Below, one piece after another: positions 1 to 4,103 of a DNA stretch of 4,103 nucleotides. This stretch comes from a virus. Lineage: Duplodnaviria > Heunggongvirae > Uroviricota > Caudoviricetes. How positions within the stretch are numbered: the stretch's first letter is position 1; each line of letters opens with the position of its first letter. Under the pieces are notes generated by a model, which saw nothing but the letters and a program-made list of their open reading frames with translations, did no database searches and was not told where the DNA came from. The stretch lies in IMG/VR virus record IMGVR_UViG_2651869861_000013, positions 1 to 4,103 of that record; one strand, given 5' to 3'. The translations under genes and the position numbers were made by a program.

Positions 1-2551
1 TGGCGGCACGGAGCCGCGCATCACCTGTAATGCGTACCTGACCACGCGGCGCAAGGCGTGGGATGTGCTCAGTGATTTCTGCTCGGCGATGCGCTGTATG
101 CCGGTATGGAACGGGCAGACGCTGACGTTCGTGCAGGACCGGCCGTCGGATAAGGTGTGGACCTATAACCGCAGTAATGTGGTGATGCCGGATGATGGCG
201 CGCCGTTCCGCTACAGCTTTAGCGCCCTGAAAGACCGCCATAATGCCGTTGAGGTGAACTGGACTGACCCGGACAACGGCTGGGAGACGGCGACAGAGCT
301 TGTGGAGGACACGCAGGCCATTGCCCGTTACGGTCGTAACGTCACGAAGATGGATGCCTTTGGCTGTACCAGTCGGGGGCAGGCACACCGTGCCGGGCTG
401 TGGCTGATTAAAACGGAACTGCTGGAAACGCAGACCGTGGACTTCAGCGTGGGCGCAGAAGGGCTTCGCCATGTACCGGGCGATGTCATTGAAATCTGTG
501 ATGATGACTATGCGGGGATCAGCATCGGTGGGCGTGTGCTGGCGGTGAACAGCCAGACCCGGACGCTGACGCTCGACCGTGAAATCACGCTGCCATCCTC
601 CGGCACCACGCTGATAAGCCTGGTTGACGGAAGTGGCAATCCGGTCAGCGTGGAGGTCCAGTCCGTCACCGACGGCGTGAAGGTAAAAGTGAGCCGTGTT
701 CCTGACGGCGTTGCCGGATACAGCGTATGGGGGCTGAAGTTGCCGACGTTGCGCCAGCGCCTGTTCCGCTGCGTGAGTATCCGTGAGAACGACGACGGCA
801 CGTATGCCATCACCGCCGTGCAGCATGTACCCGAAAAAGAAGCCATCGTGGATAACGGGGCGCACTTTGACGGCGACCTGAGCGGCACGGTGAATGGCGT
901 CACGCCGCCCGCGGTGCAGCACCTGACTGCCGAAGTCACCGCAGACAGCGGGGAATATCAGGTGCTGGCGCGCTGGGACACGCCGAAGGTGGTGAAGGGG
1001 GTGAGCTTCCTGCTTCGCCTGACCGTGGCAGCGGATGACGGCAGTGAGCGGCTGGTCAGCACGGCCCGGACGACGGAAACCACATACCGCTTCACGCAAC
1101 TGGCGCCGGGGAACTACAGGCTGACAGTCCGGGCGGTAAATGCGTGGGGACAGCAGGGCGATCCGGCATCGGTATCGTTCCGGATTGCCGCACCGGCAGC
1201 GCCGTCTCGGATTGAGCTGACACCGGGCTATTTTCAGATAACCGCCACGCCGCATCTTGCGGTTTATGATCCGACGGTACAGTTTGAGTTCTGGTTCTCG
1301 GAAAAGCGGATTGCGGATATCAGGCAGGTTGAAACCGCAGCCCGCTATCTTGGCTCGGCGCTGTACTGGATAGCTGCCAGTATCAATATCAAACCGGGCC
1401 ATGATTATTATTTTTATATCCGCAGTGTGAATACTGTTGGCAAATCGGCATTCGTGGAGGCTGTCGGTCGGGCGAGCGATGATGCGGAAGGTTACCTGGA
1501 TTTTTTCAAAGGAGAAATCGGGAAAACACATCTGGCCCAGGAGCTGTGGACGCAGATTGATAACGGTCAGCTTGCGCCGGACCTGGCTGAAATCAGGACG
1601 TCCATTACGAATGTCAGCAATGAAATCACGCAGACCGTCAATAAAAAACTGGAAAATCAGAGTGCGGCAATCCAGCAGATACAGAAAGTTCAGGTTGATA
1701 CAAATAATAACCTGAACAGCATGTGGGCCGTGAAACTGCAGCAGATGCAGGACGGACGCCTTTATATTGCGGGTATCGGTGCCGGTATTGAGAATACGCC
1801 AGCAGGAATGCAGAGTCAGGTGCTGCTGGCGGCAGACAGGATTGCGATGATTAATCCTGCGAATGGCAACACAAAGCCGATGTTTGTTGGTCAGGGCGAT
1901 CAGATATTTATGAATGAAGTGTTCCTGAAATATCTGACGGCTCCCACCATTACCAGCGGCGGCAATCCTCCGGCATTTTCCCTGACATCAGACGGAAAGC
2001 TGACCGCTAAAAATGCGGATATCAGTGGCAGTGTGAATGCGAACTCCGGGACGCTCAACAACGTCACGGTAAATGAAAACTGTACGATTAAGGGCATGCT
2101 GGAGGCGACTCAGGTCAGAGGTGACTTCGTTAAAGCTGTATCCAAATCATTTCCGAAACAGGCTGGTACGTGGGGTAACACGGAAACACCAAACGGGACG
2201 GTTACAGTCACCATCAGCGATGATCATAACTTTGACCGTCAAATCATTATTCCGCCCATTATCTTTAACGGAATAGCGTATAGCGATCCGGGAAGTGGTA
2301 ATAACCCGGGAGGTACAAGATACACGGGTTATGGTTTTGAAGTTCGCAAAAACGGTGTATTAATCGCATCCAGAGAAACTAAAGGGGCCATTCCCGGTAG
2401 CTACAGTGCGGTTATTGATATGCCGAGTGGCAGGGGAAGCGTCACTCTGGAGTTTAAGGTTTTCCATAAAGGCAATCAGCGGGCAGGTAATATCACCGAC
2501 TGTACGGTGATTGTGACCAAAAAAGCGGCTTCCGGCATCAGTATCCGTTGA
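1..2551 (+). CDS. J: Tail tip / central tail fiber host-specificity protein J, 5'-truncated by the window edge (C-terminal ~850 aa present; codon phase starts at position 2; stop TGA 2549-2551)
   Basis: The reading frame is open from position 2 ([51 protein letters not shown]...) with no stop until 2549-2551. The translation closely matches my recollection of lambda gpJ through the N-terminal and central part, including the fibronectin-III-like segment (...[37 protein letters not shown]...) and the [42 protein letters not shown] block. The GTG at 65 used by the ORF track is an internal codon, not the true start. Confidence 0.93.
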
Positions 2552-2573
2552 AATATTTATAACCCTAATAACG

Positions 2574-2600
2574 GGCGCCAGAAATGGCGCCTTTTTTATT
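2574..2600 (+). terminator. Rho-independent terminator-like hairpin downstream of J (7-bp GC-rich stem GGCGCCA/TGGCGCC, GAAA tetraloop, then TTTTTTATT)
   Basis: Read directly: stem 2574-2580 pairs with 2585-2591, loop GAAA 2581-2584, T-tract 2592-2597 followed by ATT. The minus-strand version has no U-tract after the stem, so it is + strand only. Confidence 0.6.
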
Positions 2601-2610
2601 GCAGAAAATC

Positions 2611-2616
2611 GGGAGG
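2611..2616 (+). promoter_or_regulatory. Shine-Dalgarno sequence (GGGAGG) for lom, 5 nt upstream of the ATG at 2622
   Basis: GGGAGG followed by spacer TAATT and ATG; near-consensus ribosome-binding site with good spacing. Confidence 0.6.
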
Positions 2617-2621
2617 TAATT

Positions 2622-3221
2622 ATGCGTAAAGTTTGTGCAGCAATTTTGTCCGCAGCCATTTGTCTGGCCGTATCCGGTGTGCCTGCATGGGCGTCTGAGC
2701 ATCAGTCCACGCTGAGCGCAGGATATCTTCATGCCAGTACGGACGCTCCCGGCAGCGATGATCTGAACGGGATTAACGTGAAATACCGTTATGAGTTTAC
2801 GGACACACTGGGGCTGATTACGTCCTTCAGTTATGCCAACGCCGAAGATGAGCAAAAAACGCATTACAGCGATACCCGCTGGCATGAGGATTACGTGCGT
2901 AACCGCTGGTTCAGCGTGATGGCAGGGCCGTCTGTGCGTGTGAATGAATGGTTCAGTGCGTATGCGATGGCGGGTGTGGCTTACAGCCGTGTGTCGACTT
3001 TTTCCGGGGATTATTTCCGCGTAACTGACAACAAGAGGAAAACGCACGACGTGCTGACCGGAAGTGATGACGCTCGCTACAGCAACACATCTCTGGCGTG
3101 GGGGGCTGGCGTGCAGTTTAACCCGACCGAATCAGTGGCCGTTGATGTCGCTTATGAAGGCTCCGGCAGCGGTGACTGGCGCACTGACGGTTTCATCGTG
3201 GGTGTCGGTTATAAATTTTGA
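2622..3221 (+). CDS. lom: Lom outer membrane protein, Ail/Lom/PagC family 8-stranded beta-barrel (lysogenic-conversion 'moron'); predicted signal peptide 2622-2693
   Basis: 199-aa ORF with a strong RBS. N-terminus MRKVCAAILSAAICLAVSGVPAWA|SEHQ is a typical Sec signal peptide with an AxA cleavage site. The C-terminus ends ...GVGYKF, the terminal aromatic residue typical of OM beta-barrels. The translation is nearly identical to lambda Lom as I recall it (SEHQSTLSAGYLHAS...GINVKYRYEF...RWFSVMAGPSVRVNEWFSAYAMAGVAYSRVSTFSGDY...). Position directly after J matches lambda gene order. Confidence 0.93.
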   Translation: MRKVCAAILSAAICLAVSGVPAWASEHQSTLSAGYLHASTDAPGSDDLNGINVKYRYEFTDTLGLITSFSYANAEDEQKTHYSDTRWHEDYVRNRWFSVMAGPSVRVNEWFSAYAMAGVAYSRVSTFSGDYFRVTDNKRKTHDVLTGSDDARYSNTSLAWGAGVQFNPTESVAVDVAYEGSGSGDWRTDGFIVGVGYKF

Positions 3222-3242
3222 TTAGTAACACAGCGTTATGAC

Positions 3243-3269
3243 AGCCCGCCGGTTCAGGCGGGCTTTTTT
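3243..3269 (+). terminator. Rho-independent terminator downstream of lom (8-bp stem AGCCCGCC/GGCGGGCT, loop GGTTCA, T6 tract)
   Basis: Read directly: 3243-3250 pairs with 3257-3264, loop 3251-3256, TTTTTT 3264-3269. It lies 22 nt after the lom stop. No U-tract follows on the minus strand. Confidence 0.65.
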
Positions 3270-3271
3270 GT

Positions 3272-3275
3272 GGAG
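3272..3275 (+). promoter_or_regulatory. Shine-Dalgarno sequence (GGAG) for the side tail fiber gene, 5 nt upstream of the ATG at 3281
   Basis: GGAG then TGGGT then ATG. An in-frame TGA at 3239-3241 excludes a longer upstream start. Confidence 0.5.
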
Positions 3276-3280
3276 TGGGT

Positions 3281-4103
3281 ATGGCAGCAGTACAAATATC
3301 AGGCGTGCTGAAAGATGGTGCGGGAAAACCAATACAGAACTGCACCATTCAACTGAAAGCCAGACGTAACAGCACCACGGTGGTGGTGAACACGGTGGCC
3401 TCTGAAAATCCGGATGAGGCAGGGCGTTACAGCATGGACGTCGAGTATGGTCAGTACAGCGTCACTCTGTTGGTGGAGGGATTCCCGCCATCACATGCCG
3501 GGACCATCTCCGTGTATGAAGATTCTCAACCGGGTACGCTGAATGATTTTCTCGGTGCCATGACGGAGGATGATGCCCGTCCGGAGGCACTGCGTCGTTT
3601 TGAACAGATGGTGGAAGAAGCAGCGCGTCACGCAGAGGAGGCGAAGAAGAATGCCGGAGAAGCAGAGACGTCCGCGAGGAATGCCGGCATATCAGCCAGT
3701 AAGGCGGAAGCGAGCGCCGCAAATGCTGATACTTCAGCAGAGGATGCATCGGAGTCAGCCCGGCAGGCGGCAGAAAGTGCAGCCTCTGCAAAGAAGTCAG
3801 AGGAAGCGTCCTCGTCCTCAGCCTCTGAGGCCGCTCAAAAAGCCAGTGAGTCATTACAAAGTGCAACAGATGCCGAGTTGTCAAAAAAGACGGCAGAAAG
3901 TGCAGCCGGTAATGCAGCCAGGGATGCAACGACCTCAACAGAAAAAGCCCGGGAATCAGCAGAAAGCGCACAGTCAGCGGAACAAAGCAGAATAGCGGCG
4001 GAAGACGCCGTAAACAGAATTCCCACCGTGGTGGGGCCTCCCGGACCAAAGGGGGAACCGGGTCCCGCGGGTCCTCAGGGGCCGAAGGGAGATAAAGGAG
4101 AGC
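3281..4103 (+). CDS. stf: Side tail fiber protein (lambda Stf / orf-401 family), 3'-truncated by the window edge; N-terminal domain, Ala/Ser/Glu-rich low-complexity shaft, then collagen-like Gly-X-Y repeat
   Basis: ATG at 3281 with RBS. I translated the frame by hand from 3281 to the window end and found no stop (about 274 codons). This ORF is absent from the supplied track because it has no stop inside the window. The N-terminus MAAVQISGVLKDGAGKPIQNCTIQLKARRNSTTVVVNTVASENPDEAGRYSMDVEYGQYSV...FPPSHAGTISVYEDSQPGTLNDF... closely matches lambda Stf as I recall it. Gene order J-lom-stf is the lambda order. Confidence 0.88.
   Translation, partial: MAAVQISGVLKDGAGKPIQNCTIQLKARRNSTTVVVNTVASENPDEAGRYSMDVEYGQYSVTLLVEGFPPSHAGTISVYEDSQPGTLNDFLGAMTEDDARPEALRRFEQMVEEAARHAEEAKKNAGEAETSARNAGISASKAEASAANADTSAEDASESARQAAESAASAKKSEEASSSSASEAAQKASESLQSATDAELSKKTAESAAGNAARDATTSTEKARESAESAQSAEQSRIAAEDAVNRIPTVVGPPGPKGEPGPAGPQGPKGDKGE
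4034..4103 (+). repeat. Collagen-like Gly-X-Y triplet repeat coding segment within stf (GPPGPKGEPGPAGPQGPKGDKGE..., continues past the window end)
   Basis: Read directly from the translation in the stf frame: at least 7 consecutive G-X-Y triplets, proline-rich, starting at codon 4034-4036. Confidence 0.8.

Follow-up and report, generated by a model that had tools for sequence, protein, structure and literature searches.

Where does the glycine-periodic segment at the right edge of this locus lead: is it the start of a genuine collagen-like shaft, what follows it beyond the edge, and to which fiber does it belong? The window—the whole stretch of viral DNA analyzed here, 4,103 nt of IMG/VR record IMGVR_UViG_2651869861_000013—cuts the gene concerned after its first few Gly-X-Y triplets, and the answer has to combine the letters of the window with the alleles that share them. 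Our reading, held with high confidence, is that the window ends in the stf gene of a lambdoid prophage of the Escherichia coli O157:H7 Sp3/CP-933K type, and that this gene has the EPclA architecture with a collagen shaft.

Window Layout, the stf Gene, and Its Repeat

The window contains three genes, all on the plus strand: the 3′ part of J, lom, and an stf frame that stays open over all 274 of its window codons to the right edge (Table 1). J carries the Pfam domains Ig_J, Ig_J_second, Phage_Tail_Tip, and Ig_GpJ_C, and the matching gene in Sakai and EDL933 is annotated as gpJ. The lom gene, an ordinary gene of lysogenic conversion, is intact and has the same neighbors, J and stf, as its lambda counterpart.

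Table 1. Coordinates of the genes, domains, and segments in the 4,103-nt window
Feature	Position	Strand	Basis or remark
J, tail tip/host specificity gene (central fiber), 3′ part	2–2551	+	Enters from left window edge; ORF 65–2551
lom, Ail/Lom outer-membrane beta-barrel gene	2622–3221	+	Pfam PF06316, E 1.8e-131, full length; Sakai/EDL933 annotation
stf, side tail fiber gene, EPclA type	3281–4103	+	ATG 3281; first 274 codons, right edge cuts gene
PfN, prophage tail fiber N-terminal domain, aa 3–134	3287–3682	+	PF08400 phage_tail_N, E 4.2e-68
Putative docking collar, first ~95 residues of PfN	3287–3565	+	Homology to PDB 9e7m/9mgh
Ala/Ser/Glu-rich segment (coiled-coil stalk, PCoil), aa 135–246	3683–4018	+	Composition; matches PCoil of Ghosh et al.
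IPTVV linker, hinge between coiled coil and collagen shaft	4019–4033	+	Five codons, from translation
Collagen-like (Gly-X-Y)n start	4034–4103	+	7 triplets + Gly-Glu, cut by window edge

Three features support the assignment of the last gene as a lambda-type side tail fiber gene: it follows J and lom, it encodes a PF08400 domain, and PfN residues 3–95 match the collar domain of the Ur-lambda Stf (PDB 9e7m/9mgh; E 1.6e-50). Lambda Stf occupies the same position in the order J, lom, stf; it is 89% identical to the window protein over aa 3–111, and it likewise continues into an alanine-rich trimeric coiled coil after the collar. The similarity ends near aa 111, and the distal parts differ: lambda Stf lacks a collagen domain and carries a T4 gp37-like fiber with an OmpC-binding tip, whereas loci of the window type carry a collagen triple helix, a 64-aa PfC knob, and a 53-aa tfa remnant. 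Judged from sequence, the window gene is an Stf by its attachment module and position, not by its distal module.

Position and collar also bear on a reading in which the collagen-like protein is a bacterial surface adhesin that binds host tissue, in the manner of streptococcal Scl or Bacillus BclA. Collagen-like proteins of bacteria are known to serve as adhesins, the PDB matches include BclA (1wck, E 2.8e-9), and Ghosh et al. leave open a role of the EPclPs for E. coli itself (PMC3368898). Streptococcus Scl1/Scl2 and Bacillus BclA share with the EPclA type an uninterrupted Gly-X-Y repeat free of hydroxyproline, a globular trimerization domain that nucleates the helix, and a composition in which Pro is concentrated at X and polar or charged residues (Thr, Lys, Gln) stand at Y. 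They differ, however, in being anchored cell- or spore-surface proteins rather than virion fibers, and their trimerization domains are unrelated to PfC. The window gene, by contrast, follows J and lom, where lambda has its stf, and begins with a tail-docking Stf collar domain, and its translation, judged by eye, shows no signal peptide and no cell-wall or outer-membrane anchor. EPclP expression is tied to phage induction (PMC3368898), and Mondal et al. (2016) found the related two-collagen-domain ORF67 of phage Sp5 at the end of the tail by immuno-EM (PMC5155283). An adhesin is extremely improbable on this evidence, and we proceed with a phage side tail fiber.

Downstream of PfN, the fiber protein enters the Ala/Ser/Glu-rich low-complexity segment that the original prediction had placed ahead of the repeat. 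Residues 135–246 comprise 31% Ala, 21% Ser, and 13% Glu, near the 32/19/13% published for PCoil, a segment that is alpha-helical and trimeric by CD and SEC-MALLS (PMC3368898). The frame around the linker reads ...AEDAVNR-IPTVV-GPPGPKGEPGPAGPQGPKGDKGE, and the translation from 3287 ends ...AEDAVNRIPTVVGPPGPKGEPGPAGPQGPKGDKGE. In the EM images of Ghosh et al., PCoil and Col are joined by a hinge, and the PfN-PCoil construct of that study ends at residue 250, where, in our reading of the primer, the reverse primer reads back PTVV (PMC3368898).

The repeat itself, claimed as an uninterrupted Gly-X-Y series in the stf frame, is confirmed by translation and by a shuffle test, but its start is not: position 4019, given as the first base, belongs to the Ile codon of IPTVV, and the register begins at 4034. 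From 4034 to 4102 it holds eight in-register glycines, and the codon after the terminal Gly-Glu begins at base 4103. These 23 collagen residues correspond to the first ~6.6 nm of the shaft. Across 2,000 mononucleotide shuffles of the window, the longest Gly-X-Y run in any frame was 6 (6/2000); because runs of at least 7 are absent from the shuffles (0/2000), the repeat is not a product of chance. A chance or low-complexity artifact was considered and is ruled out by this test together with the Pfam and PDB collagen matches given below.

A six-frame scan of the window returned one other Gly-X-Y run of at least 4, GGTGSRGSSGAEGR, which comes from reading the same DNA in another frame and runs into a stop. 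This shifted reading of 4034–4103 yields a Gly/Arg/Ser-rich peptide and recurs as the C terminus of several frameshifted database alleles. The collagen-coding DNA (4034–4103) is 70% G+C, against 55% in the remaining window.

Continuation of the Gene in Identical Alleles

The last 904 bases of the window (3200–4103) are 100% identical to ECs_0844 in prophage Sp3 of O157:H7 Sakai and to Z0982 in CP-933K of EDL933; among complete E. coli genomes, 234 records, including many other O157 genomes, carry the window end at ≥99% identity. ECs_0844 is annotated as “phage tail fiber protein,” and WP_000741879 of the re-annotated EDL933 as “prophage tail fiber N-terminal domain-containing protein.” ECs_0844 has 438 aa, of which aa 252–362 form 37 uninterrupted Gly-X-Y triplets (111 aa), a domain that would span 4034–4366 in window-equivalent coordinates. 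Pro occupies X in 17 of the 37 triplets, and most Y positions hold Thr, Lys, Gln, Ala, or Arg. The Sp3 protein scores 63.4 bits against Pfam PF01391 Collagen (cut-off 27.2; E 1.7e-17), a score obtained with the full-length protein, the 23 window residues being too short to score alone, and its repeat matches animal collagen chains in the PDB down to E 6e-73. The collagen-like character proposed from the window alone is thereby borne out. Behind the repeat, aa 364–427 form the 64-aa PfC knob (PF06820 Phage_fiber_C; E 1.1e-33). An AlphaFold2 single-sequence model of the Col-PfC end (97 aa) had mean pLDDT 48.9, pTM 0.36, and weak beta-strand content, too poor for use.

The window feature is already known, its locus standing in the literature as ECs0844 and Z0982. 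Ghosh et al. (PLoS One 2012) compiled a catalog of collagen-like ORFs from the prophages of Sakai and EDL933, and their Table 2 lists ECs0844 (Sp3) and Z0982 (CP-933K) as type EPclA—EHEC prophage collagen-like protein A, of which ECs2717 (Sp14) is another example—with 437 aa, a PCoil of 116 aa, and a collagen domain of 111 aa (PMC3368898). That collagen length equals the 37 triplets counted here. As a discovery, the window feature therefore adds little: the class was characterized biochemically in 2012, and all of its domains are annotated by Pfam and PGAP. Window and EPclA agree in the DNA that they share with ECs_0844/Z0982, in composition, and in the module order PfN, PCoil, hinge, Col; the published lengths of PCoil and collagen are found in the identical allele. 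They differ in two respects. The window holds the first 23 collagen residues only and leaves its full triplet number to be extrapolated from other alleles; and its upstream J differs from that of Sp3, being a mosaic with Sp12-like sequence.

Local BLAST delimits this mosaic. Positions 1–1512 are 97.2% identical to Sp3 and positions 1873–4103 are 99.2% identical, 1513–1872 has no match in Sp3, and 1300–2083 is 99.4% identical to the J of Sakai prophage Sp12. Because J is an Sp3/Sp12 mosaic, the whole window is without an identical copy in the genomes compared: at ≥99% identity, megablast found no place for it in 5,426 complete E. coli genomes (best full-length place, 93.6%), and it was matched in 0 of 68 IMG/VR loci picked by an exact 110-base pattern from the J mosaic segment (best, L038, 96.2% over 758–4103). 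Given the mosaic J, the sequence suggests that the window is either a recombinant of co-resident lambdoid prophages or an assembly chimera.

For the same reasons—a mosaic J and no identical whole-window copy—the continuation past 4103 is an extrapolation from alleles that match the last 904 bases exactly. On that basis, 37 triplets appear most likely, possibly fewer. The larger number is favored because the Sp3 stf 3′ part with all 37 triplets is present in 222 complete-genome records, compared with the 234 that carry the window end, both at ≥99%; sampled matches in this band each form one ungapped 1,201-base piece. The collagen-PfC segment is present in 729 of the 5,426 complete E. coli genomes, usually in many copies each.

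These alleles also weigh on a reading of stf as a decayed pseudogene, with a frameshift or stop just past the window edge and no fiber made. Most lambdoid prophages of O157 are regarded as defective, which would fit such decay. Defective alleles of the family do exist, among them the frameshifted EPclA* in Table 2 of Ghosh et al., where Z1382, Z3309/Z3307, and ECs2159/ECs2158 are marked as frame-loss variants (PMC3368898), and collagen C termini in a shifted frame occur in the database relatives P0074, P0075, and P0097, the last ending ...GASRAKGGTGARGSSGAEGR. Against decay, all 274 window codons are open, the last 904 bases are identical to those of intact alleles (ECs_0844, 438 aa; WP_000741879; and, subject to the rounding described below, P0001, 390 aa), the frame is open in every database copy identical to these bases, and the continuation is intact in the 222 complete-genome records at ≥99%. 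An end to the repeat within a few codons, or a frameshift or stop immediately downstream, is absent from Sp3/CP-933K and from the P0001 contig. We consider a pseudogene very unlikely and retain an intact Sp3-type fiber gene as the preferred reading.

Length Variation and Modular Ends among Relatives

A protein search with the 274-aa window fragment listed 120 relatives, and these agree with the claim that shaft length varies between related phages. In the 73 complete relatives with the same PfN and PfC, the triplet counts are 4, 5, 8, 14, 15, 16, 19, 20, 21, 25, 26, 32, 36, and 37, with 19 and 37 the commonest. Several variant counts come from chromosome-sized contigs; some of the short variants come from draft assemblies, in which repeat collapse is possible. 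The collagen start varies as well, with coiled-coil length (aa 188, 210, 224, 251, and 264), and in 12 relatives, mostly from Shigella, a Peptidase_S74 end (PF13884) replaces PfC.

Many of the database relatives P0098–P0120, each standing for hundreds to thousands of members, end at about aa 207–226. These ends look like draft-assembly contig breaks ahead of the multi-copy coiled-coil/collagen repeat, and triplet counts from short-read assemblies therefore need caution.

One relative shows a length change in an otherwise nearly unaltered gene. P0001, from a draft E. coli assembly (contig L003), has an open 390-aa frame with 21 triplets, retains the PF06820 C-terminal domain, and lies in an Sp3-like gene context: lom, stf, PfC ORF, nleB2, nleC. 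Its BLASTP identity to the window fragment is 100% as a rounded value, the translated gene differing from the window's Stf part at a single residue. Relative to ECs_0844, it shows one residue change (S/A) and lacks 16 triplets through a clean in-frame deletion of 144 nt, which is bordered by the direct repeat ACAGGT. A tandem unit of 11 triplets (99 nt) was entertained as the cause of length variation in the family. TRF reports only a loosely kept 99-nt period (2.2 copies, 71% matches), and the unit was rejected because alleles do not differ by multiples of 11 triplets. Recombination or slippage between short quasi-repeats, of which the ACAGGT junction is an example, is the better description.

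Such variation raises the possibility that the gene from which the window derives passes into a different module after its first triplets, either a much shorter shaft or another C-terminal end such as Peptidase_S74, the intramolecular-chaperone domain of the Shigella versions. The modularity of the family (4 to 37 triplets, with 12 relatives ending in PF13884), the recombinant J of the window, and the 21 triplets of P0001 in the same context all leave room for it. The S74-ended relatives, however, are 82–93% identical to the window Stf fragment, against 100% for the PfC-ended Sp3 alleles; the genome counts for the window end and for the 37-triplet continuation (234 and 222) are close; and the possible repeat collapse in draft assemblies weakens the case from short variants. 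We judge a different module unlikely, with a small but real chance, and keep the Sp3-type continuation into PfC as the working reading.

A broader proposal, quite unlikely when its parts are taken jointly, builds on the same observations. The window would be an as yet unsampled recombinant prophage combining an Sp12-like J segment with an Sp3-like lom–stf, its fiber might have an uncatalogued triplet number or C-terminal module, shaft length might be a tunable “reach” parameter that fits the thickness of the host O-antigen or capsule, and the 89-aa PfC ORF behind stf might serve as an alternative tip or hetero-trimer partner.

The Sp3-type protein is also represented among deposited phage genomes, where 141 records (Stx1a, long-tailed Stx2a, and cdtI phages) share ≥80% of the protein, at ~79–95% identity in sampled matches. 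The short-tailed Stx2 phages share its collagen and PfC part (aa 274–438) at ~92% identity. Their tail fiber is EPclB (933W L0121, Sp5 ORF67/ECs1228, phi24B gp61), which also has PfN and PCoil and, like Sp3 stf, is followed by an 89-aa PfC-only ORF (Sp5 ORF68). EPclB differs in its length (645 aa), in its two collagen domains (157 and 114 aa) split by a Pf2 repeat, and in its podovirus tail. A preprint on phi24B argues that the related fiber does not bind BamA.

Proposed Working of the Fiber and the Region Downstream

Physical data on the EPclA type bear directly on the trimeric triple helix that the original prediction had proposed. The recombinant EPclA tested was an ECs2717-like paralogue, the copies being reported as >90% identical (PMC3368898). 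It is trimeric by AUC and SEC-MALLS; it gives a collagen CD spectrum, with cooperative melting at 42 °C and quick refolding; its PfN-PCoil part is alpha-helical and melts at ~50–52 °C; PCoil and PfC each trimerize alone; and rotary-shadowing EM shows a hinged dumbbell 55–62 nm long (PMC3368898). For the EPclA type, the triple helix has thus been demonstrated experimentally, through a paralogue. At the other end of the protein, cryo-EM of Ur-lambda shows that Stf residues 1–94 build a collar of 12 copies where gpV meets gpM; each of the four trimeric side fibers is fed by three collars (PMC12617516).

By homology to Ur-lambda, we infer that the PfN collar would dock the fiber on the tail near its tip. 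An Ala/Ser/Glu-rich trimeric coiled coil of ~116 aa would follow and, through the short hinge IPTVV, lead into the collagen rod, in which three chains of uninterrupted Gly-X-Y would wind into one rigid, thin shaft. With 37 triplets this shaft would measure ~32 nm (111 residues at 0.286 nm per residue), and a ~32-nm helix, a ~17-nm coiled coil, and two knobs fit the published EM length. The PfC knob, able to trimerize alone, would nucleate refolding of the helix, starting at the C terminus. The knob is also presumed to be the part that binds the cell, and the rod would hold it tens of nanometers from the tail, where it could touch the cell surface first. Given the quasi-repetitive DNA, triplets gained or lost in frame would alter shaft length and leave the end domains undisturbed. 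The family thus offers a natural hydroxyproline-free, thermostable collagen with in-frame length change, of some interest for phage host range and for recombinant collagen engineering.

Behind stf, the identical alleles carry a second copy of the terminal domain. ECs_0845 (89 aa) starts one base after the stf stop (Sakai L001 7400–7669; window-equivalent 4599–4868) and is a stand-alone PfC domain (PF06820, E 5e-36), 35% identical to the PfC of Stf itself. Its Sp5 counterpart, ORF68, was reported to be nonessential, and the authors propose that it is a reservoir cassette for a spare tip (PMC5155283). The receptor-binding tip expected downstream takes another form in the identical allele, which ends in the 64-aa PfC trimerization knob; a large tip of the lambda/T4 kind is absent downstream of stf in these loci.

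Lambda Stf is widely considered to require Tfa for its assembly, and looking for a downstream tfa gene had been suggested as a check. No intact tfa was found downstream of stf in Sp3/CP-933K or in the P0001 contig; there is a 53-aa Caudo_TAP (tfa) remnant, ~3 kb away, behind nleB2 and nleC. Recombinant EPclA trimerized in a laboratory strain without phage helpers (PMC3368898), which is consistent with a fiber that needs no Tfa. The gene order after ECs_0845 (Sakai L001 7846–12517; L003 6083–6244) is nleB2, nleC, the tfa remnant, nleH1, and nleD, the nle genes being type III effectors, and this effector cargo seems either to have entered the original tfa region or to have taken its place. For annotation, the value of the window lies here: it represents the tail-fiber end of an EHEC-type lambdoid prophage with type III effector cargo just downstream.
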